From: a virus
Lineage: Duplodnaviria; Caudoviricetes
Strand: one strand, 5' to 3'
Length of the DNA: 64,000 bases
IMG/VR virus record: IMGVR_UViG_3300020120_000082
Span: 32,001-96,000 of that record
Shown here: positions 14,905-58,444 of the stretch, piece by piece
How the letters are laid out: each line of letters opens with the position of its first letter
How positions within the stretch are numbered: position 1 is the first letter of the stretch
Program-made: the position numbers and the translations under genes
The notes under the pieces: generated by a model
Seen by the model: only the letters and a program-made list of their open reading frames with translations
What the model was told of the DNA's origin: nothing
Databases searched by the model: none

Positions 14905-14920
14905 ATTCCAGATCTGGAAT
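14905..14920. repeat. 16-bp palindrome ATTCCAGATCTGGAAT, copy 1 (intergenic)
   Basis: Exact match; upstream of the sortase gene. Confidence 0.95.
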
Positions 14921-14941
14921 CCTGCTTAGGGTAAAACTGAT

Positions 14942-15277
14942 CTACTGCGGATCTTCGCCACGGGTGACAACCGTGCCATCTCCGTGTACGGCCACGACTT
15001 TTCCAGGTACACCCGGAACGGTGTCACCAATCGCAGGTTTCTTCGGACCAGCCTGTAAGCCTGGGGAAGCCAGCTTTTGATCGACGACTCCAATGCGGTT
15101 GTTTAGCCTGCCTTCAAGACTCTTCAGTTCTCCCCACAAATCCTTCTTCAGATTGGCCAGTTCTGCTTTCAAGGCGGCAACTTCATCTGTCAATGACGAC
15201 TTCTCTGGTACGACATTCTCTTCAACGGGTGTTTCGGTTGCGTCAGATGTAGCATCTTTCTTGGTTTGGGGTGGCAT
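14942..15277 (-). CDS. Hypothetical coiled-coil protein
   Basis: GGAG RBS, tiles with neighbours. Confidence 0.7.
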   Translation of the reverse strand: MPPQTKKDATSDATETPVEENVVPEKSSLTDEVAALKAELANLKKDLWGELKSLEGRLNNRIGVVDQKLASPGLQAGPKKPAIGDTVPGVPGKVVAVHGDGTVVTRGEDPQ

Positions 15278-15288
15278 ATTTGATCTCC

Positions 15289-15678
15289 TCAGAGTTTCTT
15301 ATCGCCGTGACGATAAGGGCGAGTAACGTTGTATTCCATTTTCGCGGAAATGGCATGCTGCAAGTTTATTCCGTAATGCCCAGCCGTATCCAGGATGCGA
15401 ATAATGCAGTCGGCCAGTTCTACGGGGATCCCTTCCGGCTTTCCATCTAGGCCAAAGTAGATTTCGTTGTAGCCATGGCCATTGCGATACTCTTCCAGGG
15501 CTTCCGAAATCTCCGAGTGGAACATGGCGATCTGTTCACCAAAACTCTTCTCCTTTCCCTTTTCCCACCAACCCTTGCCAATTGCCCATTCGTTGACGGC
15601 ATGTGACAGGGAATTGATGGTGCGGCTCGAATCGAAACGTTCTACCCAGAGCTTCTCTTCTTGAACGACGTCAGACAT
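15289..15678 (-). CDS. MazG-like / all-alpha NTP pyrophosphohydrolase
   Basis: HSEISEALEEYR...GIPVELADCIIRILD...AKMEYN motifs; start placed at MSDVV (TAATG overlap). Confidence 0.8.
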   Translation of the reverse strand: MSDVVQEEKLWVERFDSSRTINSLSHAVNEWAIGKGWWEKGKEKSFGEQIAMFHSEISEALEEYRNGHGYNEIYFGLDGKPEGIPVELADCIIRILDTAGHYGINLQHAISAKMEYNVTRPYRHGDKKL

Positions 15679-17048
15679 TAGTTTAGATCTCCCAGACTGC
15701 CGAATGGTCCATCCGAGCAATGATTGGAACTCAGTTTGAACTGCGATTGGACTGGCGTCATGCCAAAATCTGTAGCCATGGGAATTCCCAGTCCGCTGTT
15801 ATTTGAAACACTCTGCGTCAATGGCCCATCGGCCACAACATGGCCGTAAGCATCCGTGGTAAACATCGTTTGCTCGCTGCTGGCGTTGTACCAATAAACC
15901 GGGCCGACATAGGCTTCGCGTTTACAGCCTTTCCACGGACCAAGGCCAAAGACCTTGTTCTGCGCGGCGTAGTTTTTTGTCAGATACAACGGATGCACAC
16001 CGGGAACATCCAGCGGATTGAACAGGCTGATTGGATCAAACACAGCCGGTGATCCCAGCGCTGTCACGATTGTCCCATTAGCTCCAATGACACTGAATTG
16101 CATCGACCAGATCTCATAGTCGGATGGCGGCTGGCACAGATCTGCCCCTGGCACAGCCATGGCTGTTTTCGAAGCTCTGGGATTGGCGCAGATATTGGCC
16201 ACACCGCCCGCATCAGCCAGCCCCTGCACATGCACAAAATGCCCATCCGGGGCAACCACATCCAGGATCATCGAGTGGTACTGGGTATAGAAACGAGCCG
16301 CGCCAGACGTGCCCATGTGAACCACCAGCCGATTGCTGGTTAGCGCCGTGCGGCCATCGTTATTGATCACGCCAGCGTTTTGGACAAAGACCTTGAAACC
16401 TTCGTGTGGTTCATTGAAGCCCGCCAGTTGCCCGATGCGCTCGAAAGCGGGCGGAGTGTTATTGGCCAAACTGGTGCGGTAATCATCGCCATGCTCGTGA
16501 GCGAAAGTACAGGTTGGGCCATTTGGATTACTGATGTCGATCGGCACAACCTGCGGATGCCAGGTGCGATAAGTAATGCCATTGACCTGAACCACATAGC
16601 GATCGTGAATGGCCGCGGTACAAGTTCCCAATAGCAGCGGATTTACCGGCTGCATGCCCTGGACAGGCGTTGCTGGTATAGCCGTAACCGCCAGAGTCGC
16701 GCTGGGAATTGGCGTTGAAGTGGGTGCGCTCGTCGAGGCGGAAGTCGACGTAGCCGTTGTGGTGGCTGTCCCGGTTGGCGTTGGCGTGCCAGTTGGTGTG
16801 GCTGTGTCAGTCGGCGTGGGCGTTGCTGTTGGCGTATCTGTAAACGCCGGAGTGTCCGTAATGGAGTGCGAGGTGCATTCCAGGATGACACCCGATTGGG
16901 ATGGACCAACTGTAACGCAAGCTGTGACTTGCTGCGTTGGTTGAATAGCCTGGGCCAGCCTAAGCCAGGGCACAGATACTTGCCCAGTGCAAGCTCCTAC
17001 AAGACCAATGATGATAATAAGCACTGATCTAAATAGTCTGAGTTTCAT
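15678..17048 (-). CDS. Putative lipoprotein with Thr/Pro linker and His-rich C-terminal domain
   Basis: Signal peptide with lipobox-like VGAC; PT repeats; TWHP, HEHGDD, EPHEGFK motifs; GGAGG RBS. Confidence 0.7.
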   Translation of the reverse strand: MKLRLFRSVLIIIIGLVGACTGQVSVPWLRLAQAIQPTQQVTACVTVGPSQSGVILECTSHSITDTPAFTDTPTATPTPTDTATPTGTPTPTGTATTTATSTSASTSAPTSTPIPSATLAVTAIPATPVQGMQPVNPLLLGTCTAAIHDRYVVQVNGITYRTWHPQVVPIDISNPNGPTCTFAHEHGDDYRTSLANNTPPAFERIGQLAGFNEPHEGFKVFVQNAGVINNDGRTALTSNRLVVHMGTSGAARFYTQYHSMILDVVAPDGHFVHVQGLADAGGVANICANPRASKTAMAVPGADLCQPPSDYEIWSMQFSVIGANGTIVTALGSPAVFDPISLFNPLDVPGVHPLYLTKNYAAQNKVFGLGPWKGCKREAYVGPVYWYNASSEQTMFTTDAYGHVVADGPLTQSVSNNSGLGIPMATDFGMTPVQSQFKLSSNHCSDGPFGSLGDLN

Positions 17049-17057
17049 AGCGCCTCC

Positions 17058-17996
17058 TTATTTGAATATCTTGTGGTGCGCATCGCGAAGCTCTTCTGGG
17101 TATATGGTAGCGTAAATTCTAGTGACATCACCACTTTTATGACCGAGAAGATCCTGGGCTAGGGCAACATTGCCGGTTTCACGCAAGATTCTGATCGCGA
17201 AATCATGCCGGAAACTATGGGGCGTGAAACCGTGTGGAGATACGCCAGCTAACCTGCAAGCTTCCAGGACGACGTTGTAAATGCTCTGGTCGCCCAGAGC
17301 AGTGCTAGATATTTTTCCACCCCTACGATGCTGACAAAATACAGGGTCGTTGCTTTTTACAACACCACGCTCGGAGAAATACATTCGAATTAGATCCGCT
17401 GCCTCTTGGCTGAAAAACACGGGACGGCGTTCACTATTTTTTCCGATAACGGTTCCGCTTTTTTCATCCAGATCTATGCTGTTTACTTTCAACCGAGCAA
17501 GCTCAAAGCGACGGCAACCAGAAGAATACAGAAAAGCAATGATGGCCCGATCCCGAACCAATGGCAACTGGCGTGAAGCAAGATGGACTTTATCAGCATC
17601 GCCCTTCGCAGGGATACGCGGAATATAATCTCCACGCTTGCTTTGAAGCAGGGCAGGCGCTTGTTTGAGACGCAATTGGTCAGCTTGATCAGGCTGCAAA
17701 TGACGATGCATGATCAGCCAGTCTACGAAATGCTTGACTGCTGATATGTAGACAGTGGTGGTTTGTTTGGCGTATTCGCGCTTGGCAAGCCAGGTATAGT
17801 AGCGAATAAATACGTCGACAGATACCTGCTCCGTGGTTTCTATTTTTTCTTGACGCAAGAAATCACGGAACCTTCCCAGGCCATTGTGATAAGAACGGGT
17901 TGTATTGCGAGGCTTTACCAGAGAAATTTCCTTGAGACAGGTTTCTATAGCAACATTGATGTCCATGGAAGCTATTTTATCACATAGCTTTACCAT
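17058..17996 (-). CDS. Tyrosine recombinase (XerC/D-like integrase)
   Basis: RDRAII..LYSSGCRRFEL, GKNS.RR, TPHSFRHDFA, LLGH, TRIYA catalytic motifs plus N-terminal SAM-like domain. Confidence 0.93.
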   Translation of the reverse strand: MVKLCDKIASMDINVAIETCLKEISLVKPRNTTRSYHNGLGRFRDFLRQEKIETTEQVSVDVFIRYYTWLAKREYAKQTTTVYISAVKHFVDWLIMHRHLQPDQADQLRLKQAPALLQSKRGDYIPRIPAKGDADKVHLASRQLPLVRDRAIIAFLYSSGCRRFELARLKVNSIDLDEKSGTVIGKNSERRPVFFSQEAADLIRMYFSERGVVKSNDPVFCQHRRGGKISSTALGDQSIYNVVLEACRLAGVSPHGFTPHSFRHDFAIRILRETGNVALAQDLLGHKSGDVTRIYATIYPEELRDAHHKIFK

Positions 17997-18028
17997 TTAC
18001 AAATTATCACTAATAGATAATTCAACTA

Positions 18029-18226
18029 CTATCGCCTGTTTTTAGTCACCAATGAACCGCCAACCAGAAAGTGCCCCAAGATTCCAAAGGCGATTCCAGC
18101 AACAAAACCACCAGCCAGGTGAATATTAAGTCCGACTAAGCTTTCAACAATCACTATAGCGATTGCTGCACCTATCTGAAAAGTCATGAATAACCAAAAT
18201 CTGCGCCAATCTATTTTTATGTGCAT
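18029..18226 (-). CDS. Small two-TM membrane protein
   Basis: Two hydrophobic segments; tiles with neighbours. Confidence 0.55.
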   Translation of the reverse strand: MHIKIDWRRFWLFMTFQIGAAIAIVIVESLVGLNIHLAGGFVAGIAFGILGHFLVGGSLVTKNRR

Positions 18227-19239: not shown

Positions 19240-19240
19240 A

Positions 19241-25986: not shown

Positions 25987-26262
25987 TCAGGCATTGTCAA
26001 TCTCCCGGTGCTGAATGCCAAGCTCTTTGGATTTGGCGGCTGTCAGACAATACTGAAAGCTCATGTATCCGAGATCGTCGAATGGCCTTTTGAGCAAAAT
26101 CCCCTTAGCCGCCAACTGCTTGCAGGACGAATTCCTGGCGGTAATCAGGCGCAGCTTTGTATAATCTTCTGGATCAAACCAGACACCTGGCTCAATGCAT
26201 TCCAGCAAGAGTCTCTGGTTGTTCGTCAGTCCAAACTTGTCGTAACTTGTCGTTCCAGCCAT
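25987..26262 (-). CDS. Hypothetical, possibly winged-helix protein
   Basis: Tiling ORF. Confidence 0.55.
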   Translation of the reverse strand: MAGTTSYDKFGLTNNQRLLLECIEPGVWFDPEDYTKLRLITARNSSCKQLAAKGILLKRPFDDLGYMSFQYCLTAAKSKELGIQHREIDNA

Positions 26263-27899
26263 TATTTATTTCTCCGATTGATTTGCAGATCAGGGTTGCG
26301 CAGGAATAGCTCTGACTTCCCCTGGCGCTCAATAGTCAAAGCGCCCAGTCCGGCCAGATTGCGCAGGGATGTATAGATGCTCGGCTTAGCCACTTTCTTT
26401 CCGCGGCGGATCAATTCGTCAAACGCCGATTGGCCATTCGCGCCCTTGTCGAAAAACCCTTCCGAGATTAGCCGCACCAGCCAGCCCTGAAGATCATCCC
26501 CCATCTCCACTACCGGGCGAACTGTCTCAATCTCGATCGTGGGGATCGTTACCGCCAACTTGATCAGGGTTTTGTCCTGGATCATGCGCCGAATGAATTC
26601 TTTGTACAGCGCATCGACATTCAGGCCTGAGATTCCATCTTCCTGGAACTTGTCCAGATTGACGTGCTGGGCTCCATTGCCATTCTCGGCAATAGGCGGT
26701 ACGCCCTGGTGATGCTGGGCATGGTTGGCCATCAGATCAACCAGCTTATCAAGCGTATCAATAATTCTTTCTTCAGCTTCTTTGCTCATCTCATCTCCTA
26801 AGTTCAGATCTTCAGCAGTCAATTCACCGGCTTGGAACTTGGATTCCAGATCTGGAATTTCGTCGGTTGGCGTAAAACCAATACTGAAATGGTTGGGCAA
26901 ATTAGGCACCAATGAACCGCGGCCTACCCAGGCTTGCTCGATCACCGCTTCGCCCATGGCCACTTTCTTGGCCTGTTCATCAGTCAGCCAGACTGGCTGC
27001 ACATAGGTCTTACGAACATGCTTGCCCCAGCAGGCAAAGAATTGGCCCAGTTCCAGTTGAGCAATGTTTTCCGGCCTGGGCCGCTTGATACCGGCTGGGA
27101 TCTCCGAGAGTGTGCGCTTGATTTCATTGGCTTCACGCTGCACACCCAGAATCCAGAGCGGGATGCTCTTCAGGATGATCTTCTCAACGCCCGCAATATC
27201 CTGGCTGTCCAGCCATAAGTAATTCCCAAGGCCAGCCGCTTGTCGAATGTAAGACTCGGCAGACAACTTAACTGGTGTCCCCCTGCCCTGCGGTATAAAC
27301 TTCCATGCTTCAGGAATAACAACCACGGTGTTGTTTTCATGTTCCAGCACCCAGTCTATGGATGACTTAATGACCAGGTGCTGCATCTCCGCGGAGATCT
27401 TGGTCAAGTCCATGACATTGATGCCTGGATCCAGGCTGATCGATTTGGCCCATTGGACTTTATCAATCGACGGCAGCACGTCTTCCAGGTAGGCTTCCAG
27501 CGTCAGATAGACATCGCCGCTCAAGCCCTTAGCTGTCTTGAGTGCGTTGCGAACGTTGTGGTAGACGTCGCGCAATGTCCGAGCGCCCTTGCTGGCCCTG
27601 ATAATCCAGGCTCGCTCGAATTTCAGTTTCTCGCCGCGGTTGACTTCCAGGATGCTGGAAACAAATTTCCAATCTGCTTGCTCGCGGAAGTAGGGATCGA
27701 TACGATGGGCATCGCGAAAGCCCCCTTCCCCACGCTTGGTAATAAAACTCAGGGCCTTGACGCCTGAGCGCTGTACCAGCGCCTCCAATGTACTCGTTTT
27801 ACCGGCCATTTGAGTCTGGCCGGTGATGACCATGTGGTTGATAGGGATCTCAACAGAATCTCCAGAGTCAACTTCATAGCCCAGAAGAACGTTACTCAT
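26262..27899 (-). CDS. HerA/FtsK-like P-loop ATPase with divergent Walker motifs and C-terminal wHTH-like region
   Basis: HMVITGQTQMAGKTST, VVVIPEAWKFIPQ, LWLDSQ, IAQLELGQF. Confidence 0.7.
   Translation of the reverse strand: MSNVLLGYEVDSGDSVEIPINHMVITGQTQMAGKTSTLEALVQRSGVKALSFITKRGEGGFRDAHRIDPYFREQADWKFVSSILEVNRGEKLKFERAWIIRASKGARTLRDVYHNVRNALKTAKGLSGDVYLTLEAYLEDVLPSIDKVQWAKSISLDPGINVMDLTKISAEMQHLVIKSSIDWVLEHENNTVVVIPEAWKFIPQGRGTPVKLSAESYIRQAAGLGNYLWLDSQDIAGVEKIILKSIPLWILGVQREANEIKRTLSEIPAGIKRPRPENIAQLELGQFFACWGKHVRKTYVQPVWLTDEQAKKVAMGEAVIEQAWVGRGSLVPNLPNHFSIGFTPTDEIPDLESKFQAGELTAEDLNLGDEMSKEAEERIIDTLDKLVDLMANHAQHHQGVPPIAENGNGAQHVNLDKFQEDGISGLNVDALYKEFIRRMIQDKTLIKLAVTIPTIEIETVRPVVEMGDDLQGWLVRLISEGFFDKGANGQSAFDELIRRGKKVAKPSIYTSLRNLAGLGALTIERQGKSELFLRNPDLQINRRNK
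26843..26858. repeat. 16-bp palindrome copy 2 (in ATPase CDS, encodes IPDLE)
   Basis: Exact ATTCCAGATCTGGAAT. Confidence 0.95.
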
Positions 27900-31067: not shown

Positions 31068-31331
31068 CTACCTGACGTCCAGTCCTTCTGGCGGCACATA
31101 TTTCTCGCCGGGGATCTCGATTCCATTGCGATTTTTGCCCAAAAACCTGATCATTCCGTGGCGCTCCATCAGTCTCAGGTTGTGGAAAATGCTGGTTTTA
31201 CCGTGTCCAGTCTCTCTGCCTATTTCCAGCATGCTGGGCGTTGCTCCACCGTACTTGATTTTGTACCTGACGATATAGTTCAGGATCCCGTCAAGCCTTG
31301 CCTTCGTTTCCGGGCTCAGATCTTTTTTCAA
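31068..31331 (-). CDS. LexA-type winged-helix DNA-binding protein (no peptidase domain)
   Basis: ILNYIVRY..KYGGATPSMLEIGRETG..KTSIFHNLRLMERHGMI. Confidence 0.8.
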   Translation of the reverse strand: MKKDLSPETKARLDGILNYIVRYKIKYGGATPSMLEIGRETGHGKTSIFHNLRLMERHGMIRFLGKNRNGIEIPGEKYVPPEGLDVR

Positions 31332-33493: not shown

Positions 33494-34471
33494 TCAGCTT
33501 TCTGTAGATCCAGAAACGGACTGCCCTTGATATAGTTCTGGAAACGGCTGGGCAGTTGCATCCTTTCGACGTCGAGGTCGTCTAGCTTTTTGCCCGCCAG
33601 CAGGTAGCATGTCTGCCGGTTGCACAGACAACTCGGGATCAGCTTCAAGTTCGTCATAGTGCTTATTTTTCCGCTCTAACCATTGTTGATACTCGCTTTC
33701 GTAGAAGACTGGTGGTTCATTAGCACAGTATTCCTTCCACTGTGAAATCATAGGTGGTTCGCCCACCGACTCGATGGTTGAAATGTAGTGAATTTCAAAA
33801 CCATCTCCGATAACGCCATCCCGGATAGCTTCCAGGCATCCAGCAATCTCATCAGCGGTGTAACGCTGTAACAATTGGCTGGCGTGTTTCTTGACCGCCC
33901 CCCGATCGTCATCTGGAGATTTCCAATCACGCTTGAATATCTCACGCACCACCCATTTGGCCAGCTTCTCGGTTTGGCTTGCTTTACGAGCCACGTCTAG
34001 ACCCTTCCAATATTGGGATTCCAGGATCTCGATTTGATACACCGGGTAGGGCGACCAGTTGCCAACGGGATCATAAGCGCCCTGGTCAATATCCCGGCAG
34101 ATACGAATCCAGGCGTCGAACTCGGATGACTTGCCAACGCCGACGAACTTGGCTTCCGGGAATGATGCCAGGTAGGCGATGTCTTCCATGGACGCATTGT
34201 GAATCCACTCCTGGTTGTAGGCATGGCAACAGTCGCAGAAGAAACCGATCTTGATGTCCCAGATGCGCCAGCCCAGGTAGCGGTATTCCACAATCGACCA
34301 CTCAGCCAGCCGCTTCCGGGATTCCAGATCTGGAATTTCTTTCTCATCAGGCATGTTCCAATTCAAGCTGTTGATCTTCTTCGGCCCGATGCACCCGGAC
34401 CAGGGTGACGTTCTGGCTGGCCAGTTGCTCCAGATACTCTTCCGGCTCTTCACCGCCGACCACATATTCAA
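33494..34471 (-). CDS. Hypothetical protein upstream of helicase (possible replication/loader protein); true start probably MPDEKE at ~34354
   Basis: Long ORF; position-based inference. Confidence 0.55.
   Translation of the reverse strand: MNMWSAVKSRKSIWSNWPARTSPWSGCIGPKKINSLNWNMPDEKEIPDLESRKRLAEWSIVEYRYLGWRIWDIKIGFFCDCCHAYNQEWIHNASMEDIAYLASFPEAKFVGVGKSSEFDAWIRICRDIDQGAYDPVGNWSPYPVYQIEILESQYWKGLDVARKASQTEKLAKWVVREIFKRDWKSPDDDRGAVKKHASQLLQRYTADEIAGCLEAIRDGVIGDGFEIHYISTIESVGEPPMISQWKEYCANEPPVFYESEYQQWLERKNKHYDELEADPELSVQPADMLPAGGQKARRPRRRKDATAQPFPELYQGQSVSGSTES
34321..34336. repeat. 16-bp palindrome copy 3 (in CDS, encodes IPDLE)
   Basis: Exact ATTCCAGATCTGGAAT. Confidence 0.95.
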
Positions 34472-35057
34472 TGCGCTGCGGCAGGAACACGCAGATGATG
34501 GCCGGGATGTCTTTGGCTACCATGCGCCCAGTCGTCAACGCATGCCCCTGGATCATCGGCAAGCCTTTCTGGGGAGCGTCTTCGTCAATCTCCGGCACCG
34601 GAACTTCAATCGAATCTTCCGGGACCAGTTCGGTGAAAACCTTGGGATGCCCCAGCAGAACAACGCTCTCCCCAACTTTGAAATGCCGGGGCAGCGGGAA
34701 TGCAATGCGCTTGGAAATACCCAATTCGATGGCTTCACGGCGGAAGTCATCCCGAGACTTGTAATGCTTGGCCCCTACCCCAATCAGATAGCCTTCCCCG
34801 GTGCGATTGATCAGGCAGGCACGGCAGGCTTCCCGTGGATCCTTGCAATTGGCATGCGCGAATAGATTCTTGACATTGACTTTCTGCAACCCGCGAGTCA
34901 GCTTGACTTGAAGACCGCAGCACTCGCAGGGCTCCAATCTCAGCGGCAACATCCCACATTCCGTCATCCGGGCCGGATCAGTCCGGAGATAGAATCCGGT
35001 ATGACGCCATCCGCAACCTCGTTTGTGATCAGTTACATCTTGAATCTGAACAGTCAT
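34347..35057 (-). CDS. Cys-rich conserved hypothetical protein
   Basis: RGCGWR..G.YL, CECC, GISKRI. Confidence 0.7.
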   Translation of the reverse strand: MTVQIQDVTDHKRGCGWRHTGFYLRTDPARMTECGMLPLRLEPCECCGLQVKLTRGLQKVNVKNLFAHANCKDPREACRACLINRTGEGYLIGVGAKHYKSRDDFRREAIELGISKRIAFPLPRHFKVGESVVLLGHPKVFTELVPEDSIEVPVPEIDEDAPQKGLPMIQGHALTTGRMVAKDIPAIICVFLPQRIEYVVGGEEPEEYLEQLASQNVTLVRVHRAEEDQQLELEHA

Positions 35058-39195: not shown

Positions 39196-39223
39196 ATTCT
39201 ATAGAATCTCTCCGCTTCGTCAA
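39196..39223 (-). promoter_or_regulatory. Sigma70-type promoter
   Basis: TTGACG-N16-TAGAAT on the minus strand. Confidence 0.6.
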
Positions 39224-39477
39224 TAGAAAAAATGTTTGTCGGTGTTTGTCCTACAGGCTGTCATCATAAATCTCATTGGTATAGACGTCAATCACCATAT
39301 CTTGACAAATTTGATACCGAAGGCCACAGGTAGCCTATCAAGATGCTGGCGATGCAGATCGTCAGGCCAGCCACAAAAACAATCCAGGCCAGGCCGACAT
39401 AATCGATCTCATTCTTCAGGATTGGAAAGCCGGGGACGTGTCCGTTGGGTTTAATCTTGGTTAGCATATGCGCTCCG

Positions 39478-39493
39478 ATTCCAGATCTGGAAT
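39478..39493. repeat. 16-bp palindrome copy 4 (intergenic)
   Basis: Exact match just after the macrodomain stop codon. Confidence 0.95.
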
Positions 39494-39494: not shown

Positions 39495-39926
39495 CTATGG
39501 CAGCTTACAGATATAGCTGGCCGGGAAATAGTACTCCAACAGTTCTTGCACAATGTCCCAATCGCCACCACCCAGTCCGCAGCCGATTTTGTATGGGAAG
39601 AAAGTGTCTAAGCCATTAAATTCTCGGCCATCCAAAGTCTGTCTAAGCTGGAACAGGGCGCTTGAAAGAGCCCCGTAATTTGTCTGGCGACTCATATTCC
39701 CATATCCCAATTGGCCAACCAGAAATGCCAGGACCGGCCCACTGGCTTGTTGAAAGATCATGCAGCTTCCAAACGCTGGCCTTGCTTGCCGATAAGCGTA
39801 GATCGCACCGGGATATTGTTTGAAAGTCAGTTTGGCAAGACCAGCCCCGGCAATACCCAGAGAGTTCATTTGTTGAGCGATTACACCACGTTTAACGAGC
39901 AGAATGTCCTGGGTAATGTAATTCAT
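39495..39926 (-). CDS. Macrodomain protein (ADP-ribose binding/hydrolase, Poa1p/DarG-like)
   Basis: DIL...IAQQMNSLG.AGAGLAK...FPYKIGCGLGGGDW; ATGA overlap start. Confidence 0.85.
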   Translation of the reverse strand: MNYITQDILLVKRGVIAQQMNSLGIAGAGLAKLTFKQYPGAIYAYRQARPAFGSCMIFQQASGPVLAFLVGQLGYGNMSRQTNYGALSSALFQLRQTLDGREFNGLDTFFPYKIGCGLGGGDWDIVQELLEYYFPASYICKLP

Positions 39927-40333
39927 TCCAGCAAGCTTTCGTCGAATTCGGCAATCGTAATCTTGGCTGGCGCTATTTGAACCTTCCCGCCCAGGTAGTA
40001 TTCTTTCCAAATGTCATGGTTCTCTTCCCCTTCCCCAGAAAGAATGAATAGAAAGCCTGGATACTTTTCGCTGATGGCTTGCATATCTTCCCGGTGTTCG
40101 TACCACTTGCATTGATCAAGATTGCCGTCGACCAATTCGGACAGATCGTAATCGTTTCCGAAGTAACTCAGATGCTCCGCCATGATATCATCCAGGATTG
40201 GTAGCTGCTCGATCTTTTTCCCGCAGGCCGAGCAGAACTTACCATCGCCAGGAACATTGTGCAGACAGCTTGGCCGAGTTTCTGGACCAGAATGATGCTT
40301 GATTTCCAGTAAGTAGTTTGTGTAATAGCCCAT
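39923..40333 (-). CDS. Conserved phage hypothetical protein with Zn-ribbon insert
   Basis: MGYYTNY...KWYEH..DM..IS.KYP..LF.L.GEGEE..D.WKEYY.GGK. Confidence 0.7.
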   Translation of the reverse strand: MGYYTNYLLEIKHHSGPETRPSCLHNVPGDGKFCSACGKKIEQLPILDDIMAEHLSYFGNDYDLSELVDGNLDQCKWYEHREDMQAISEKYPGFLFILSGEGEENHDIWKEYYLGGKVQIAPAKITIAEFDESLLE

Positions 40334-41159: not shown

Positions 41160-41595
41160 TATATTCTAATCTCCAGGATCCTTGTTCTTTGAATGTTTTT
41201 AGTCTATGGCACTTAACGCATCGTATCTCACATTTTTCCATTTCCTTAATGAACCTATCAATCGGACACCCATGTTGTATTGCTCTAGATATATTGAATT
41301 TCTTATCTTTGATGTGGTCAAAATCCAGAAAGACTATGTCACTTTCTCCACAATCTAAACATGGATGAGAAACAAGGTGGTTGAATGCTATTTCCCTTAG
41401 CCTTTTAACTAGATTGGCGTGCGAGGTTGCTACATTCGATCTGTAATCTGGGTGATCTTCATAAAACTTTTTTGACCTGGCTTGCATACATTTACAGCAA
41501 TTAGATTGATGCCCGTCGGATCTATTTTTGTCCTTGTAAAATTTAGATATATCTTTTGTTTCTCCGCAGTGACCACATCTCTTTTTCATGGGCAC
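41083..41595 (-). CDS. HNH endonuclease with N-terminal Zn finger
   Basis: KRCGHCGETK..SKF, PCLDCGE....LDFDH...EMEKCEIRCVKCHR.KT. Confidence 0.85.
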   Translation of the reverse strand: MPMKKRCGHCGETKDISKFYKDKNRSDGHQSNCCKCMQARSKKFYEDHPDYRSNVATSHANLVKRLREIAFNHLVSHPCLDCGESDIVFLDFDHIKDKKFNISRAIQHGCPIDRFIKEMEKCEIRCVKCHRLKTFKEQGSWRLEYIERYKQENTHDVHKKEAISYYERPC

Positions 41596-41600
41596 CCCTT

Positions 41601-41636
41601 AAAAATGCAGGGAGGCACTACCCTGTGCCTCCCTGC
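41601..41636 (-). terminator. Intrinsic terminator closing the protein+RNA cassette
   Basis: GCAGGGAGGCAC-agggta-GTGCCTCCCTGC followed by ATTTTT on the minus strand. Confidence 0.85.
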
Positions 41637-41940
41637 GGTATGCAGATTTCAAGTCTGCGTTGTATTGGCCTATTAGCTCAACAAGCTGGTTTTGACGTGA
41701 TTTGGGGCAATGTTTTATCACTAAACTACAGGGTCATGCGTTTTACTTCACCACCAGAGACCCCGCGAGGATTTAAACCTCGGATCTTTGCCCGCTGACA
41801 AAAGTCAACTTGTTTTTACCCAGGCCCTGAACTTGTTGGAGCAATAAGCTGAGTGTCAGCAACGTCCCGATTTGGGACCGTTGCTATTGTGACCTGACAC
41901 TGACACTGACGCTGACGCTGACAACAAGACTGCTCCCAAA
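41637..41940 (-). ncRNA. Novel structured RNA with permuted tRNA-like (YrlA-topology) module, hexamer repeats and anticodon-like hairpin
   Basis: T-arm 41766-41782, acceptor strands 41759-41765/41729-41735, D-arm 41712-41726, anticodon-position stem 41788-41793/41705-41710 extended by a long helix. Confidence 0.75.
41894..41923 (-). repeat. Five tandem hexamers YGTCAG
   Basis: Plus strand reads CTGACA CTGACA CTGACG CTGACG CTGACA. Confidence 0.95.
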
Positions 41941-41941
41941 G

Positions 41942-42691
41942 TTATTCGCCGTCGATATACTTGAAGATCTTTTCGGACAGCTTCAAATCGACAGCCTGGA
42001 TATCGTTACCGCGCTGGCGAGCCTGCTTGACTGCCGCCAGCAATTCATTCAACCGCTCCATGCGATCCGCCTTGTCCTTCGGAGACAGCATGCCGGAAGT
42101 CTTGACGGTCGTCCAGATTCCATCGCGCACATCCACATCGATCAGATTGACCTGGGCTGGATGCCGATCAGTGGCATCGGCCAGGACAATGCGCTCCTTC
42201 ACCTTCTTCGTGCGATAGGTGATCGACGGCGCAGTCTTGAAAATGTCGTTATCCGCATCCTTGGTCCATTCGTCCGTGATGCTGTTGGTGGGAATGGCTG
42301 CGTACACGCTGCGCAGATCTTCCAGGCGGCTCTCCAGATTCAGCAGCGCCGTCACGGTCATGCCCTGGAAAAGCACCGTCCCGCCATTCAGGATGACGTC
42401 AGCAGATGCACCCGGCAGGGAATTGGACGTTTCCTTGGACAAAACCAGGTCCAGGTAGCGGCCATATTCCTTCTGGAGTGTCCCCAGAACGTCCTTCACC
42501 TCGGCGCTGAGCGGCTTGACTTCAGCCGGAAACTTATCGCCCTTCTCTTCGTCCAGAGTCTGATAGGTCTTGACCTGGCCGACAAACAGCGCCTCGCCGG
42601 TTTCGAAAAGCTTCTTGGTTTCAGCCAGGACTTTCTTGCCCCTGATCTTCAGATCGTCTTCAACTGCCAGCAGTTCGTGGATCTTGCCCAT
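41942..42691 (-). CDS. Uncharacterised ~250-aa helical protein (resembles a widespread family I recall as DUF7873; unverified)
   Basis: K.HELLAVE, G.VKTY, ADVILNG, LLNLE..L, T.RTKKV, AT..HPAQV, SG.L, L..AVK.ARQ..N; AGGAG RBS. Confidence 0.8.
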   Translation of the reverse strand: MGKIHELLAVEDDLKIRGKKVLAETKKLFETGEALFVGQVKTYQTLDEEKGDKFPAEVKPLSAEVKDVLGTLQKEYGRYLDLVLSKETSNSLPGASADVILNGGTVLFQGMTVTALLNLESRLEDLRSVYAAIPTNSITDEWTKDADNDIFKTAPSITYRTKKVKERIVLADATDRHPAQVNLIDVDVRDGIWTTVKTSGMLSPKDKADRMERLNELLAAVKQARQRGNDIQAVDLKLSEKIFKYIDGE

Positions 42692-42734
42692 GTGCGCCTG
42701 ATCTCCTGATTTCCCGTTCGCTATGTTGGTCGTA

Positions 42735-42764
42735 ATATTACACCCGGAATGCTTTATCTGTCAA
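42735..42764 (-). promoter_or_regulatory. Sigma70-type promoter of the protein+RNA cassette
   Basis: TTGACA-N18-TAATAT. Confidence 0.65.
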
Positions 42765-42767
42765 CCG

Positions 42768-43241
42768 CTATTTGGGATGGTTGCGCCGATAATATTTCCT
42801 GGCATTTTGGATGGCACATTGTTTGCAAGTCCTGGCATATCCATCCCGGATCACATTCGAATGCCCAAATTCAAACAGGGATTTATTCTCGTGACAACGG
42901 TTGCAGTGCCGCAAGCCTAGTTTGATCAAGTCTGCGTTTCGATTGGGACGATGAGCGCCCAGATTATGAGACAGTGACGCAATTGAGTTTATGCTGTATC
43001 CAGTCTGATCGGCTATCTTGTCAATGCCGACTCCGTCTGAATAAAGACGAGCTACGACTTTCCTGATCGGCAATTTCCTGGCCACATTCAGTGCCCTGCT
43101 ATTGCCGATGCGAAGTCGAACCGCTTCCCCGGTAATGCCATAAATATCTGCGATTTGTTTGTTATTCTTGCCCTGGCGGCGAAGTTCAAGCATCTCTTCA
43201 TCACGCTGCAAGTAATAATCTCTATCTGGTCTCATTACCAC
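42768..43241 (-). CDS. Double-HTH plus Zn-finger protein
   Basis: KQIADIYGITGEAVR, KIADQTGYS, CNRC...CKQC. Confidence 0.65.
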   Translation of the reverse strand: MVMRPDRDYYLQRDEEMLELRRQGKNNKQIADIYGITGEAVRLRIGNSRALNVARKLPIRKVVARLYSDGVGIDKIADQTGYSINSIASLSHNLGAHRPNRNADLIKLGLRHCNRCHENKSLFEFGHSNVIRDGYARTCKQCAIQNARKYYRRNHPK

Positions 43242-43460
43242 TCGTTATTGAACCAGCTAAGCGTGGCGTGATAAACACCATCCGACTCGTCGGACATATC
43301 CAGGTCCAGGAACGGGTGGCTGTCGTAAGAGTCGTCTGTTTCGCGCCGACGCAGATGAATACAATCCGGACAGTTCGACAGATGGTCTTTCAGGGTTTGC
43401 TCGGTGAATGCCTTGCCACGTTGGCTGCGATAGCGCCCACAGGGAGAACGCAGCGCCGGA

Positions 43461-43664
43461 TTAGTGGTTGTCTTCAGTTTCGGCATCGTCTTTTACCACG
43501 GCTTGGGCATAGCGGTATTCGATATCATCATACTCATCTTTAAAACAAGTCACGCTGACTCCGCCCTGCAATTTCCAGCCATTATCAAGAAATTCCTGTA
43601 CATCTCTCAATACTTCCGAATAGTTTCCCATGGCCAGATTGTATTGCATCATTTCCAACTCCAT
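43461..43664 (-). CDS. DUF1737-like small protein
   Basis: V...LDNGWKLQGGVSV...YAQAVVK. Confidence 0.6.
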   Translation of the reverse strand: MELEMMQYNLAMGNYSEVLRDVQEFLDNGWKLQGGVSVTCFKDEYDDIEYRYAQAVVKDDAETEDNH

Positions 43665-44293
43665 GAATGCCAGTAGGAATGTGTCTGATTATCATTGATC
43701 CAAATGCCCAGTATGTAGTTGTCAGTATTAGCTTTCCCCAGGCTCTCACCTTTAGGGCCTGAGAATTGGGGGCGCTCAGCCAAAGAGACTATGTGCCGCG
43801 GCGGATATTCCTGGAATAGCCCCCTGGATCTTCCCTGGGTGTGAGCAAAGTCAGTGGGCAACAGGAAACAGATGATCCCGTTTGGTGCTAGAAAGCTGAA
43901 CGACTTCCGGATGAAAGCTTCGGCCCACACAAACGGCGGATTGCCAATCACCAGGTCGGGAGCCATCATGGTTGGCATCCACTTTAGATAGTCGGTGCGC
44001 GGGTGCCAGAAATTGTAGTCAGCAGGCTGGACTTTCTTGCGTAACTCTACGCCAGTCAGAACAAGCCCCTGCTGAAAAGATGGCCCAAAGTGATCACGCA
44101 CCGCCCCACCCCAAACGCCACTTCCGGCTCCTGGATCCAGAACGTACTGGATATAAGTGTGTGGGAAGTGCGTGTGAGTTGTCAGCCAGTTGACAGTTGC
44201 CTTGGCCAATGATAGGGGTGTCAGATAGGTGTCGTGAGATATACGAGGTCTAAGTTTTCCGATAACGCTTGAGTCTCTAAATATTACTGGCAT
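43649..44293 (-). CDS. Orphan DNA amino-(N6-adenine) methyltransferase
   Basis: DTYLTP, VLDPGAGSGVWG (motif I), IGNPPF (motif IV), FLLP. Confidence 0.85.
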   Translation of the reverse strand: MPVIFRDSSVIGKLRPRISHDTYLTPLSLAKATVNWLTTHTHFPHTYIQYVLDPGAGSGVWGGAVRDHFGPSFQQGLVLTGVELRKKVQPADYNFWHPRTDYLKWMPTMMAPDLVIGNPPFVWAEAFIRKSFSFLAPNGIICFLLPTDFAHTQGRSRGLFQEYPPRHIVSLAERPQFSGPKGESLGKANTDNYILGIWINDNQTHSYWHSWSWK

Positions 44294-44489
44294 GTTATAT
44301 TTTAGTGGTTCTCGTTGTCGAAATAGTACACCCTGGCAGTCCAGAAATTCTCATCATCCAGAGTGAGCACGACATCGTTGACATGAATAAAGCGACGATA
44401 GAGATCGTCTAGAAATGGACGCATTTCGTTGAATAGATCGCTGACTTTCAGGTGTCCTGCTGAAAAGTATTCGACTTCTAATTTCATCA

Positions 44490-44963
44490 TTAGCCTTTCT
44501 TGATCTTGACCTCTTTGGGATGTATCGCTCTGCCCTTCTTGGGCTTGCCCTTCTTTTTGCCCTCGCCGGTTTGAGACTTAGTGTCCTTGCTCATCTCGGC
44601 TTGAACCTTGCGTGGAAAGTTGATCTTGTCTTGCTCCCATTGTTCATGCCAGCCCTCCGGCATGACAGGGTGTCGCCAGATATAGGGATCCGGAATTGGC
44701 AGGCCCTTGGCATGCAACATCAGCCCAATAGATGACTGACGGCGCTTGAGTAAGTCGATCTTGTCCTGGTATTCCAGATCTGGAATCCAACCATGCTCGT
44801 TATTCTGTCGGATGATGCTAATCTCCGAGTCCAACCCAAGCCAACGGCATTGTAATGGGTGCAGATCGCCTGGGCGAGCCGCTACCATCACGCTGCCGCT
44901 GGTTGGGTTTAGCATGGGCTCGGAGAAGTATCGATTAAGCGCGTCGATCTTCCCCTGATCCAT
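44490..44963 (-). CDS. Hypothetical protein with basic C-terminus
   Basis: Tiling ORF. Confidence 0.6.
   Translation of the reverse strand: MDQGKIDALNRYFSEPMLNPTSGSVMVAARPGDLHPLQCRWLGLDSEISIIRQNNEHGWIPDLEYQDKIDLLKRRQSSIGLMLHAKGLPIPDPYIWRHPVMPEGWHEQWEQDKINFPRKVQAEMSKDTKSQTGEGKKKGKPKKGRAIHPKEVKIKKG
44771..44786. repeat. 16-bp palindrome copy 5 (in CDS, encodes IPDLE)
   Basis: Exact ATTCCAGATCTGGAAT. Confidence 0.95.
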
Positions 44964-55041: not shown

Positions 55042-55051
55042 GGTTTTCTCC

Positions 55052-55717: not shown

Positions 55718-55726
55718 GATTTGCTC

Positions 55727-56407
55727 CTAGATATGCAGATCGCAAACAACAGCCATGCAATTGGCGTACTCATTCAGAATGGAAATGGCTGTGTCTTTCC
55801 AATCATCTTTCTCGCCATGCGCAAATCCAAACCAACCCATGCTGCCCTTCTCAAGCCACTGCCCTTCCGGCGTGACAATGGCGAATGGAATGTTGTCCAG
55901 GAATTCATTGGCCAAACGCTGCCGCGGAGAAATATCGCCCCAACGACCACCCATGACCCACCAGTCCCACTTGGAGTTCGGGTTGTATGTGGAACGATAG
56001 GTGCCGGTGCCATGACACTCACTGCAATCTGGATCGGGCTGATCTTTCAGCGGGTTCTGGCTGATAAGCTCTTCGATACGCTGGCTGCGCGGGCCACCAA
56101 ATTCTTTCTCCCAGATCTTGTCTAGCTCATCGCGATGCGCCCAGAATGCATCTGAGCCAACTTCCATGCCTTCTGGCAGGGGATGATCGGCATGGAACTG
56201 ATTGCGAATATCGTTGATATTTCCCATTTCCCGTGTGACCTGTTCCATGGCTTCCGCGCTGGCAATCTGCCCAATGCAATAACACTTGCGATCGTATTCG
56301 GGAACTTCCAGGTGTTCGCTATATGGAGCCAGCAACGGCTCAATGTCGTCTTCGGTAATCCGGCCAGACTCTTTATCGACAATGACCAGCGTGTAAAAGT
56401 GTGACAT
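55727..56407 (-). CDS. Conserved phage hypothetical protein
   Basis: MSHF..LV, YNPNSKWDWW..GGRW, FAIVTPEG.W.EKG.MGWFG, VCDLHI. Confidence 0.75.
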   Translation of the reverse strand: MSHFYTLVIVDKESGRITEDDIEPLLAPYSEHLEVPEYDRKCYCIGQIASAEAMEQVTREMGNINDIRNQFHADHPLPEGMEVGSDAFWAHRDELDKIWEKEFGGPRSQRIEELISQNPLKDQPDPDCSECHGTGTYRSTYNPNSKWDWWVMGGRWGDISPRQRLANEFLDNIPFAIVTPEGQWLEKGSMGWFGFAHGEKDDWKDTAISILNEYANCMAVVCDLHI

Positions 56408-56528
56408 GTTTTATCCTAATGAATAAGAACCGGGATCCACAACCGAAACGCTGCTTCCATAGAAGCAGTGGCTGCGCCTGCCAGCATAATCAAAACAAAA
56501 ACTTGGAATAGCGTAAATTGTTTCTTGT

Positions 56529-56795
56529 TCACTCCATCTCCGTGTCTTTGCAAACCAGGATGTTGCCGACCAGGAAGTCTCCTGGCAGATAGCGTGAGAA
56601 TTCAGCCGTCGCGTTCGCGTTGTATGGCAAGCCATTCAACTTGCCTTCTTCATTGCAAACAATGAGTCGGCCAGGGATGTACACAACCTCGATATAGCCT
56701 CCAACGATCTTGGAAAGCTGCTCTAGCTCAAACGTCTTGCCGTTCTCGGGCTGCACTTCTTCGGTGGAACCATCGGGGTGATAAATCGTAGCCAT
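56529..56795 (-). CDS. DUF3846-like protein
   Basis: LEQL..IVGGYIEVV...CNEEGKL.GLPYN..AT...LVGN. Confidence 0.75.
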   Translation of the reverse strand: MATIYHPDGSTEEVQPENGKTFELEQLSKIVGGYIEVVYIPGRLIVCNEEGKLNGLPYNANATAEFSRYLPGDFLVGNILVCKDTEME

Positions 56796-58428
56796 GCGCC
56801 TAATCTCCTGTGTGTAAATCGCGAAAAACAAGTTAAGTGTTCAAATCTGAACGACTTCACATAAAATAGTTCCGAGTTGTCTAGCGAGTTTTTATCTCCC
56901 GAAAATGATGCAGAAAATGCCGTGTTTTATAATTACATAAACAACAGAATCAAGCCATGCGGGCTCAGGATTTTCCGCGGATCAAAAACTGTACTAAGCC
57001 ACGCTTGTTTAACCTGGGCCATCGTAGGGGCATTTTTAGGGATGATCCAGTTGGGCCTCTGTAAAAACAACCTTGGGATTTTTTCTACCAACCAGGCGTG
57101 ACCAGATAGAAGACGGTGCTGGAACATCTCCGTTCTGCATCCAGAGCAGGGCGTCTTCGGCTGCGCCGTGACAGTCGCCATCTGAACGATCGGTTTTGTC
57201 TGGCCACCAATGATCGATCTGATCCAGGGTGTATTCCCACTTGAGAGTCTGGATCTGGGCGGTAATCATCTCCCAGTTGTCTTCGCCCAGGTGGGTGAAG
57301 TGCGGCACCTGCTTTTTCAACTTCTCAAGCGCCAGGTACTCTGCCTGGATCTCTTTCTTTGGCTTGGAGCGGGTGATGAGTTCCTGCTTCTTGGATTTCT
57401 TTTTCATATGACTTACTTATCCAGTTCGATGTGCCAATTGTTGTCCGTAGTGATCCACAGCCCTGAATTAGTCTCAACATAGCAGCCGCCAAACGTTTTG
57501 AATTGAAAATGTCGCGACGGATTAAGCGTTGCCAATTCATGGCATTGCGCTTCGTTGAATCTCAGAATGATGTATCCAGCACCAGCAGTCAATCCCCCGG
57601 ACAAAACAATAACCAGGAGAATAGTGATAATCAGTTCCTTGTTCCGTCTCAAAATTTTCATAACCCCATCTCCCCGTCATCAATGACGTGCTGCATAGCA
57701 TTCTCGAAATTGTTCAGGTCTCGCCGCATGGATTGGATCAGGTTCACAATGTTCATGATGGTCTCTTCGCCATCACCATCCACAAAGCAGCTATCACAGC
57801 CAACTTCAAGCTCTGCCATCATGCCGTCGACGCGGTTGGGATCCCCGGCACGCATCCAGACGTTTTCCATGAAGTTCTGGAATTGCTCTATATCCATCTC
57901 AACTCCCTATCTGCAATTCAACTTGATCGCCATTCACAACTGCGCCTTCAAGAAACAGATCGTCCAGCCCATGCCCCCAAACGCCATACTTTTCCGGATG
58001 CTCATAGATAGTTTGGTAGCCATCCAGAATGCACATGAACAGACTCAGGCGGGTAAACCCAGACGGATTTCTGTACGGAAATTCGGCATCGATGTCTAGT
58101 GGATAGTCGTAGTGAATGACGATCTTGGGATAGTTAATAACCAGATCATTGGGATAAGCCAAATCATCTGGATCATCCAGGACGAGCATGGTTGTCTTGT
58201 CGATCCGATCCTGGAATTGAATGCTCTTGCTCATTTCAATCTCTTTCTCATAATAGCAATCTCATATATGTCGGCAGCAAGGCATAAAGCGAAACCGATT
58301 GCGAAGAAAAACGCAGCGGTATGATCAAAGTCGGTTCGCAATAACCACTTAATAAACAGCGCCAAAGCTATAGCGATGACGGTTCTCATTTTGTCAGCCC
58401 CAAAAGATATTTCATTTATGTCTCCCTG

Positions 58429-58444
58429 ATTCCAGATCTGGAAT
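58429..58444. repeat. 16-bp palindrome copy 6 (intergenic)
   Basis: Exact match just after the stop of 58448..58963. Confidence 0.95.

Follow-up and report, generated by a model that had tools for sequence, protein, structure and literature searches.

A palindrome dispersed along a phage chromosome

Why a phage should carry the same perfect 16-bp palindrome over and over, in the gaps between its genes as well as inside them, is the question raised by the 64,000-nt stretch of DNA analyzed here (the window). The window comprises bases 32001-96000 of a 138,808-bp record (G000) from an uncultured soil phage of ~139 kb; the record is ~88% complete. The palindrome, ATTCCAGATCTGGAAT, occurs exactly at window positions 14905, 26843, 34321, 39478, 44771 and 58429, just as an earlier reading of the sequence alone had listed, and matches with ≤3 mismatches number 7 in the window vs. 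0.35 expected from shuffles. That reading had also suggested a count of exact and near matches over the whole genome, which yields 10 exact copies and 1 copy with a single mismatch. ATTCCAGATCTGGAAT is the most repeated 16-mer of G000 and the top dyad by a wide margin, and no other long palindrome is repeated in the genome. The sequence-only reading had noted no exact copy in the virion operon (1-13 kb); this is true of the window, but the structural arm directly upstream contains two exact copies (genome positions 10693 and 27461). A possible degenerate copy at 8512..8527, within a 2084-aa virion gene, has 3 mismatches to the 16-mer and 1 to the 12-bp family core, TCCARATYTGGA; because one-mismatch core copies are no commoner than chance, its membership is uncertain.

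All copies in G000 are identical through 17 bp. The asymmetric flank previously noted for the six window copies is present in every one of them and extends to all 11 sites, each of which reads W-[16-mer]-C in one orientation (chance ~0.25^11). This flank lies 4 times in the plus and 7 times in the minus orientation, and it follows the direction of the gene at 8 of 11 sites, which is not significant. Identity over 17 bp, together with the likeness of three copies over ~40 bp, could be explained by a functionless copy-and-paste cassette or scar spread by illegitimate recombination, or by an assembly artefact. We regard this explanation as highly improbable, given that the core is kept, with two apparently orthologous positions, across genomes whose GC content spans 51-62% and whose proteins are 40-55% identical, that spacing is non-random in two genomes, and that no Y1 transposase was found. 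An assembly or adapter artefact, which the earlier reading had named as a danger, is ruled out because reading frames stay intact across the copies and independently assembled relatives share the same core. We know of no adapter sequence that the motif matches.

Placement at cistron junctions and in tolerant coding stretches

Intergenic DNA makes up ~10% of G000, and 7 of the 11 sites are intergenic, five of these falling between a stop codon and the next Shine-Dalgarno sequence (SD). The sites lie at cistron junctions within operons and not at predicted promoters. Under our gene reading the window copies divide as previously described, into three intergenic copies and three coding copies that are all read as IPDLE. 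The exact intergenic copy at 14905..14920 lies between a minus-strand ORF, whose stop is 21 nt upstream, and a 563-aa gene (13176-14867), whose AGGAGA and ATG follow at 38 nt; its flank opposes the gene direction. At 39478..39493 an exact palindrome lies between stop codon and ribosome-binding site: the TAG of a 171-aa gene (39495-40010, minus strand) precedes it by 1 nt, and next come the GGAG and ATG (39467) of a gene for a small hydrophobic protein. The exact copy at 58429..58444 follows the TAG of another 171-aa gene (58448-58963, minus strand) and belongs to a ~40-bp cassette of stop, palindrome, SD and ATG; downstream come CAGGGAGACATAAATG, an ORF of 9 codons that starts at 58415 and, from 58389, a membrane-like gene of 52 aa. 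Three G000 sites have this cassette in common, and GGAGACATAA occurs only 3 times in G000, each time directly after a palindrome.

The coding copies sit in tolerant stretches. The exact palindrome at 26843..26858 is read within a 545-aa ATPase gene (26262-27899, minus strand; no match to its product in PDB, Pfam or NCBIfam). Its IPDLE codons belong to a linker where two 50%-identical homologues (L015 and L016) have a gap, and PDLE stands at this position in just 1 of 119 other homologues. These observations bear out the proposal that the site is imposed on the proteins at the DNA level. A second exact copy (34321..34336) spans codons 7-11 in the gene for a 286-aa protein (33494-34354, minus strand). 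The start ATG of this gene, at 34354, overlaps the stop codon of the gene that precedes it (34347-35057), and its peptide begins MPDEKEIPDLES. The third (44771..44786, exact) is read WIPDLEY in a 157-aa ORF (44490-44963, minus strand), the frame of which was checked by open-frame lengths; here too the flank opposes the gene direction. In all, 2-3 copies of the palindrome are deep within genes.

This placement raises the alternative that the palindrome is an RNA-level, start-associated element: an mRNA hairpin just 5′ of the ribosome-binding site where a protein, or the hairpin alone, would tune translation, coupling, or the processing and stability of the mRNA at selected junctions between cistrons. 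The Cluster K start-associated sequences (SAS) and extended SAS (ESAS) offer a precedent (PMC3203893), and the stop-to-SD sites and shared cassettes fit it. Eight of the 11 sites are ≤45 nt from a start codon (7 upstream of it, the 34321 copy 18 nt downstream), and 53 nt downstream of the copy inside the ATPase gene, too, there is an in-frame AGGAG and ATG (SD 26799, ATG 26789-26787) ahead of a C-terminal winged-helix-like part. However, with ~10% intergenic DNA such proximity to starts is expected of any non-coding site. Promoters were rejected as an explanation: there is no sensible -35/-10 geometry, and in the relative G003, described below, the motif overlaps the SD. A promoter of a phage single-subunit RNA polymerase would lie upstream of the whole 5′ UTR, and the G003 motifs, which overlap the SD or directly adjoin the ATG, leave no room for a transcript start. 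The model for T7-like RNA polymerase (PF00940) gave no match, and its control likewise matched in no genome.

Conservation of the core in related phages

The sequence-only reading had made conservation in related phages a test of the motif, and the core is indeed present in relatives. G003, a syntenic 84-kb relative of 61.5% GC, contains TCCARATYTGGA 9 times vs. ~0.01 expected. Relatives other than G003 have 1-2 core copies each, with 2 in G004, and the metagenome relatives together have 6 core copies in 331 kb vs. 0.08 expected. Two positions are apparently orthologous between G000 and G003, one of them with a mismatch in G003. In a small 84-aa gene upstream of TerL the C-terminal codons read IPDLE in G000 and VPNLE in G003. 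At the junction that precedes the tail-chaperone gene, the G000 copy is exact and the G003 copy has a single mismatch; a copy in G004 is ~100 nt away. The closest relatives by TerL are P0002-P0005 (67-69% identical); our comparison of sites covers G003, G004 and the metagenome relatives.

Wider searches returned the motif at chance levels. The exact 16-mer has just 10 single-copy matches in IMG/VR, the 14-mer TTCCAAATTTGGAA gave single chance matches among the IMG/VR matches listed, and the 17-mer matches 596 Gb of prokaryote genomes 77 times vs. ~69 expected. Three of these matches are in Ktedonobacter racemifer but give no host signal, because they and further near copies are all repeats of a single IS-like 238-aa ORF, in which the word is read FQIWNE. 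Cultured phages gave neither a DNA match nor a helicase match, and the prokaryote genome collection contained no TerL relative. Seeking relatives by the helicase or by the 563-aa gene alone yielded none, a capsid-based scan recovered only the same two viral records, and no homologues of the 84-aa gene beside TerL were found. A literature search with the motif sequence brought up primers only.

Half-site structure points to a duplex site

The 12-bp core is common to the phage family, and each of its half-sites is independently TCCAGA or TCCAAA, with the general form KTCCARA; G000 carries the long form ATTCCAGA on both halves. Across G000 and its relatives the centre of the core is therefore GATC, AATT or the mixed GATT, and the central GATC is not conserved. 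The suggestion that GATC methylation might switch binding finds no support in relatives with AATT or GATT at the centre. We also rejected a GANTC created by the C flank as a general feature, since it is absent in G003 and in three further relatives (L034, L040 and L067). Independent variation of the two half-sites is what one would expect of a dimer bound to duplex DNA. Half-sites on their own show no enrichment (TCTGGAAT occurs 4 times and ATTCCAGA 8 times vs. ~7 expected each). A Chi-like hotspot, a single-strand word active on its own, would have enriched half-sites, and this candidate was discarded.

The same data bear on the RNA-level element. Folded as RNA, the palindrome forms a weak hairpin (-4.2 and -3.2 kcal/mol), which many shuffles equal, and the dyad symmetry of the central 4 nt is unneeded by a loop. 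The SD at two G003 sites comes from the right arm, TGGAG, and T/G flank pairs in this genome would be U-G wobbles in RNA; in the sense direction, however, the four mixed sites of G003 set A against C, which do not pair, and the T/C flank combinations match half-site mixing rather than pairing. Moreover, the G000 copy at 44771 and the G003 site at 80803 are deep within genes, and a start-associated element does not predict even spacing. We therefore consider it unlikely that the palindrome acts as RNA, although the cassettes of palindrome, SD and ATG and the right-arm SDs of G003 fit a role in RNA or translation as well as they fit a duplex site. The best reading of the palindrome, as proposed from the first, is that of a protein-binding site: it is probably a site in duplex DNA for a dimeric protein.

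Even spacing along the genome

Sites occur about every 10 kb in G000, and they are spaced more evenly than chance in both G000 and G003, with no gap <5 kb. In G000 the coefficient of variation of the gaps is 0.41 (P=0.004) and the smallest gap is 5157 (P=0.006); in G003 the smallest is 5528 (P=0.001). This spacing is kept while individual positions turn over. One possible, if unlikely, account is that the palindromes form a grid of ~10-kb genome domains, with one docking site per domain for a reader other than ParB, in which sites would turn over in position as long as spacing is kept. The reader of such a grid would be a new genome-organising or genome-silencing family of phage proteins, possibly the protein with two helix-turn-helix (HTH) motifs and a zinc ribbon that is paired with a methyltransferase, described below.

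Even spacing near known ParB spreading distances, together with parS-like length, also recalls ParB and KorB. In this explanation, the sites would be loading sites for a CTP-dependent clamp sliding ~10 kb, or N15-like dispersed centromeres, and the clamp would silence, organise or, through a fused methyltransferase, modify the genome. The half-site TTCCA occurs in Bacillus parS too. G000 encodes ParB_N only as a fusion to an N6/N4 methyltransferase ~1 kb from the site at genome position 116769. However, neither G003 nor G004 has a homologue of this fusion; ParB_N is absent from both in a six-frame search and from 86 G003 ORFs in a Pfam sweep. The half-site spacing is also 2 bp off that of parS. 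The ParA model PF13614 (AAA_31, the sole model used) found nothing in the ~88% of G000 that is available, in G003 or in G004, and its controls matched in 14 of 14 genomes. The parS comparison made at the outset, and with it the search for ParB or ParA elsewhere in the genome, thus ended with the one fused ParB_N in G000, and we judge a system of this type quite improbable. With no ParB found in site-rich G003, the reader is very probably something else.

Candidate readers and genes that co-vary with the sites

The 157-aa product of 42768..43241 (minus strand), which combines a CxxC...CxxC zinc ribbon with two HTH motifs (Pfam HTH_7 3.4e-6, HTH_23 and GerE), is a candidate reader. In PHROG it matches HTH DNA-binding proteins as well as endonuclease VII/HNH families, the latter in their zinc-ribbon part. 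A 32%-identical homologue is present in site-rich G003, and none in site-poor G004; this correlation makes the protein a candidate only. Nearby, at 43649..44293 (minus strand), is a DNA methyltransferase-like gene (phrog_799, 2.4e-19; contains GNPPF) that is 39% identical to a gene in G003, where it too adjoins the HTH/zinc-ribbon gene. G000 also encodes a tyrosine integrase at 17058..17996 (minus strand; phrog_1, 4e-30). Both site-rich genomes, G000 with 11 sites and G003 with 9-10, contain the integrase family PF00589, which is missing from G004 with its 2 sites. The pair of HTH/zinc-ribbon and methyltransferase genes is distributed in the same way, so that site number appears to track both the integrase and the pair, a correlation across three genomes.

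The LexA-like winged-helix protein at 31068..31331 (minus strand; LexA_DNA_bind 0.0012, weak and below cut-off; TIGR00498 7.8e-4) had been put forward as a binder. It has no detected homologue in G003 or G004 and is therefore unsupported as a reader for the family, site-rich G003 included. No HTH family was matched at E≤0.001 in the Pfam sweep of 86 G003 ORFs, which counts against the best reading, as does the derivation of the candidate links from three genomes. No immunity repressor or attP was found. REP elements with a RAYT transposase were rejected, the Y1 (IS200/IS605-like) transposase family PF01797 being absent from G000, G003 and G004.

A further alternative is that the sites are enzyme targets, cut, nicked (as in T5, phiKMV and tf) or recombined by the integrase or by homology to shuffle modules. 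Localized nick sites in T5-, phiKMV- and tf-like phages are short conserved words, a handful to 14 per genome, at similar positions in relatives (PMC3517423), and the spacing here is like theirs; the integrase co-occurs with high site number, and Cluster O repeats sometimes flank indels (PMC4351075). Conserved gene blocks are permuted between G000 and G003, and a site falls in each of three breakpoint intervals, a coincidence that is not significant (estimated chance ~0.13). The nick words, in contrast, are asymmetric and on one strand (PMC3517423), whereas here the core is palindromic and the flank runs both ways at 4:7; recombination among eleven sites that are identical and symmetric would leave the genome scrambled. 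The endonuclease VII matches cover just the zinc ribbon of the HTH protein, with no catalytic His-Me motif visible. An enzyme target is, in our estimate, very unlikely.

How a duplex site might act

If the palindrome is a duplex site for a dimer, a homodimeric, sequence-specific DNA-binding protein of the phage lineage would recognise it, and selection would maintain about one site per 10-kb stretch of chromosome. The site would go wherever 16 bp are tolerated, mostly in the gaps between stop and ribosome-binding site of long operons, and the remainder in a protein linker or terminus where it is read IPDLE. The bound protein would act on expression along operons and not as a promoter operator, perhaps as an elongation roadblock or a silencing grid in the lysogenic state, like stoperators and the conserved inverted repeats (CIRs) of phiC31. 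We infer the dimer as reader, its being encoded by the phage and the effect of its binding. About half of our confidence in a duplex site carries over to a roadblock or lysogeny role, and we propose only tentatively the reading as a whole, that of duplex sites for a phage-encoded dimer forming a genome-wide expression roadblock linked to lysogeny. At one site per 10 kb, a silencing grid would be thin, and the pointer to lysogeny is the integrase alone.

In Cluster A mycobacteriophages, which are temperate, stoperators (L5 gp71) repeat a single repressor site many times in short within-operon gaps across the genome, where they affect elongation and not initiation; they are asymmetric 13-14-mers, read by a monomer, oriented with transcription and present at ~1 per 2 kb (PMC9283540). 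The stoperator-like comparison made earlier holds for placement, since our sites too occupy short intergenic gaps of operons. It does not hold for form and density: the site is a perfect palindrome at about five times lower density and is not clearly oriented.

Comparison with other dispersed sites

In phiC31, a temperate phage, the 17-bp CIR is found in many places in the genome and is read by the repressor, mostly in association with early promoters and terminators. Our sites differ in lying at cistron junctions throughout, virion arm included. As a dispersed exact 13-16-bp palindrome, our site resembles those of KorB with the 12 OB operators of RK2, ParB-parS, Noc-NBS and N15; some KorB/ParB-type sites are far from promoters or within genes and act at a distance, and the KorB clamp with its dispersed OB sites is a precedent for ParB-type loading (PMC11790492). 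Unlike in those systems, neither a ParB-family protein nor ParA was found in 9-site G003, and the fused ParB_N of G000 is lineage-specific. The SAS and ESAS of Cluster K are likewise conserved elements directly upstream of the starts of unrelated genes, and ESAS are inverted repeats 5′ of the SD-containing SAS, much as our cassette joins the palindrome to GGAGACATAA(A)TG (PMC3203893). However, SAS are asymmetric, contain the SD and nearly always have one orientation, and ESAS arms are 17 bp, imperfect and separated by a variable spacer, whereas our element is symmetric and some copies are deep within genes.

Dispersed exact phage palindromes have been reported before, as in Cluster O, without a known reader or purpose. 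This case adds a core word that survives very different GC contents with half-sites that vary independently, spacing that is significantly even despite turnover of positions, and searches that found no ParB across the family. Finding the reader could reveal a new phage way to silence or organise a whole chromosome and would provide an orthogonal 12-16-bp protein-DNA pair. By analogy, the closest described case is the 17-bp dyad repeat of Cluster O (Corndog) mycobacteriophages, 5′-TGTTCGGNNNCCGAACA, with the word TGTTCGG-N3-CCGAACA in >30 copies per genome; its authors predict that a dimeric DNA-binding protein reads the repeats, the function of which is not known (PMC4351075). The Cluster O sequence and arm spacing are different (there is no spacer here), copies number ~34 per genome vs. 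11 in 139 kb, sites crowd towards one end where ours are even, and the phages are without an integrase. Both repeats have invariant inverted arms and genome-wide dispersal in short intergenic gaps, near gene 5′ ends and within genes. In both, most sites are away from promoters, one site is at the tail-chaperone gene, and glycosyltransferase genes are found among the head genes.

A dispersed palindrome and its family word

Exact copies of the 16-bp palindrome ATTCCAGATCTGGAAT had been placed at six window positions by the sequence-only reading, and we find an exact copy at each. With ≤3 mismatches allowed, the window holds 7 matches, compared with 0.35 expected from dinucleotide-preserving shuffles. 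The whole-genome count that this reading proposed gives, in the complete IMG/VR phage record (G000; 138,808 bp, GC 51%, estimated to be 88% complete, with the window at 32001-96000), 10 exact copies (G000 10693, 27461, 46905, 58843, 66321, 71478, 76771, 90429, 101841, and 116769) and one copy with a single mismatch (137098). ATTCCAGATCTGGAAT is the commonest 16-mer of G000 and its sole long palindrome with more than one copy, and it stands well above every other inverted repeat in a dyad screen. The reported asymmetric flank is present throughout: in one orientation, W precedes and C follows the 16-mer at each copy, so an 18-bp palindrome never forms; simple base odds give a probability of ~0.25^11 for this pattern at all 11 sites. 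It is highly unlikely that the copies are artefacts or belong to a cassette that has no function.

G000 has no close relative among cultured phages. Its large terminase has relatives in metagenomes, and an alignment of these was used to retrieve 2 viral records and 53 metagenome loci. The viral record G003 (83,826 bp, GC 61.5%) shares broad synteny and many early genes with G000, with 62% identity in the capsid protein and 53% in the terminase. As the search among related phages suggested earlier now shows, the motif recurs: G003 carries 9 copies of TCCARATYTGGA (~0.01 expected), the second viral record G004 (74,968 bp) carries two copies of GTCCAGATCTGGAC, and the metagenome loci L034, L040, and L067 carry 1-2 each (6 in total in 331 kb, 0.08 expected). 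From these copies we derive the family word KTCCARATYTGGAM. The centre is AATT in five G003 copies and mixed, AATC or GATT, in the other four, the fifth position of the half-site being A or G, chosen independently in each half. The central GATC, proposed earlier as a methylation-sensitive feature, is therefore not conserved among relatives.

GATC itself is 2 to 2.8 times over-represented in the whole of G000, G003, the locus of an unrelated 45-kb phage sharing the ATPase gene (L015), and another locus with an ATPase homologue (L016), with 518 counts vs 248 expected in the window and 820 vs 293 in G003. A search of G000 for a Dam-type gene (PF02086) found none. L015 also contains a single 16-bp palindrome, CTTCCGGATCCGGAAG (G001:C1:18696-18709), of the same TTCC-N-GATC-N-GGAA shape as in G000, which as one copy only may be chance. 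The G003 large terminase (41548-44397, L026; P0012, 950 aa) contains an intein (PF14528/PF14890), and that of G000 does not. Apparent motif enrichment in Ktedonobacter was rejected as a host signal, being an IS copy-number effect: the 16-mer, read FQIWNE, lies close to the 3′ end of a multi-copy 238-aa ORF (K. racemifer L164, L166, L168, L171, L172, and L174; Ktedonobacter sp. L165) that probably encodes an IS transposase.

Placement of sites relative to genes

Site anatomy was taken along the direction of the local genes, whose calls are our own crude ORF choices and least reliable in the high-GC relatives. At five sites (27461, 71478, 90429, 101841, and 116769) a stop codon lies 0-3 nt upstream and a Shine-Dalgarno (SD) sequence with ATG 7-15 nt downstream. 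The last three share a ~40-bp cassette of stop, palindrome, and then GGAGACATAA(A)TG, and GGAGACATAA is confined to these cassettes in G000. Site 46905 is intergenic with an ATG 38 nt further on. Site 10693 adjoins an intrinsic terminator at its T-run, and a TTGACA-N17-TATGAT promoter follows ~75 nt downstream of the site. At site 137098, the palindrome covers the final codons of an 84-aa gene, and the large terminase ATG comes 7 nt later. Site 66321 corresponds to codons 7-11 of its gene, and sites 58843 and 76771 are truly gene-internal. The IPDLE frame noted for coding copies is used by all 4 of those in G000. In the 545-aa ATPase (window 26262-27899, minus strand), IPDLE belongs to a linker that shows as a gap in homologues of 50% identity, and PDLE occurs at that place in only 1 of 119 others. 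Overall, the sites are located within operons, not at promoters.

Three further features lie close to individual copies. An in-frame AGGAG and ATG inside the ATPase gene (window 26787-26799, minus), 53 nt past the palindrome, could allow the winged-helix-like C-terminal domain (175 aa) to be made on its own. Directly after one palindrome-SD cassette, the nine-codon ORF MKYLLGLTK (window 58386-58415, minus) overlaps a 52-aa membrane-like gene at its start by ATGA, suggesting a leader peptide or coupled start. Two strong tandem sigma-70-like promoters (TTGACG-17-TATGAT and TTGACG-16-TAGAAT; window 39196-39291, minus) lie downstream of the window 39478 palindrome, at a distance of ~190-280 nt.

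Signs of selection and the nature of the site

Two site positions appear orthologous between genomes. The pre-terminase site lies within the C-terminal codons of small ORFs that are homologous to each other: G000 reads ...LPIPDLENK, and G003 reads ...ALVPNLE-stop. At the junction before the tail-assembly-chaperone gene, G000 has an exact copy. In G003, a 1-mismatch copy precedes the homologous start by 20 nt, and a match of this kind turns up in ~0.3% of random 300-nt windows. The G004 copy is ~100 nt off, where the next gene junction falls. Other sites lie in the same neighbourhoods at different junctions, indicating that positions turn over. Spacing is evener than chance in both G000 (gap CV 0.41, P=0.004; smallest gap 5157 bp, P=0.006) and G003 (gap CV 0.52, P=0.055; smallest gap 5528 bp, P=0.001).

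We predict that the palindrome is probably recognised as duplex DNA by a homodimer, because its dyad symmetry is strict up to and including the centre, its two halves vary independently, isolated half-sites are not enriched, RNA hairpins are weak (G000 form, -4.2 kcal/mol; G003 form, -3.2 kcal/mol), copies inside proteins sit in a tolerated frame, and spacing is even while positions turn over. The main rival, an RNA-level element associated with starts, draws support from the stop-palindrome-SD-ATG cassette and from G003 sites whose right arm provides the ribosome-binding site. It is rather unlikely given the even spacing, the copies deep inside genes, and the A-C non-pair that mixed sites show when read as sense. 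Nick or recombination targets are very unlikely: known nick systems keep to one strand, a rule that the sites do not follow. The order of conserved gene blocks differs between G000 and G003 by permutation, and every breakpoint interval contains a site, an association that is not significant.

The nearest published case comes from Cluster O mycobacteriophages: a 17-bp dyad repeat with 34 invariant copies in intergenic and coding sequence away from promoters, to which neither a reader nor a function has been assigned (PMC4351075). Stoperators (PMC9283540), SAS/ESAS (PMC3203893), KorB-OB (PMC11790492), and localized nick sites (PMC3517423) each match some features of the palindrome sites but fail on others. 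Bound by the predicted homodimer, the duplex sites might act as an expression roadblock or silencing grid tied to lysogeny, a tentative role that we favour because they lie in operons, not at promoters, and their number tracks with an integrase.

Candidate readers

A G000 gene beyond the window (114462-115748, plus; L020:2462-3748) encodes a circularly permuted N6/N4 DNA methyltransferase with a fused ParB_N domain. This fusion is lineage-specific: neither G003 nor G004 has a homologue, and ParB_N is missing from both. When 86 G003 ORFs were swept with Pfam, no ParB and no HTH family appeared at E≤0.001. As a reading for the family, a ParB/KorB-type clamp grid is quite unlikely, as G003 has its sites without ParB. 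Neither ParA nor a Y1 transposase was found in G000, G003, or G004, and a search of the three for T7-type RNA polymerase gave no match, as did its control search. The LexA-like protein (window 31068..31331) put forward as a candidate binder has no homologue in G003 and is not supported as the family-wide reader.

Few non-structural genes occur in both site-rich genomes, G000 and G003, but not in the site-poor G004. The most notable of these are a tyrosine integrase, a 157-aa protein carrying a CxxC...CxxC zinc ribbon along with two HTH motifs, and a small DNA methyltransferase (GNPPF) that adjoins this 157-aa protein in both genomes. As a link to site number these three, drawn from three genomes, are a lead. 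The methyltransferase and HTH-HTH-zinc-ribbon pair (window 42768-44293, minus; G003 71189-72311) has stayed adjacent in both phages, which have only ~45 genes in common.
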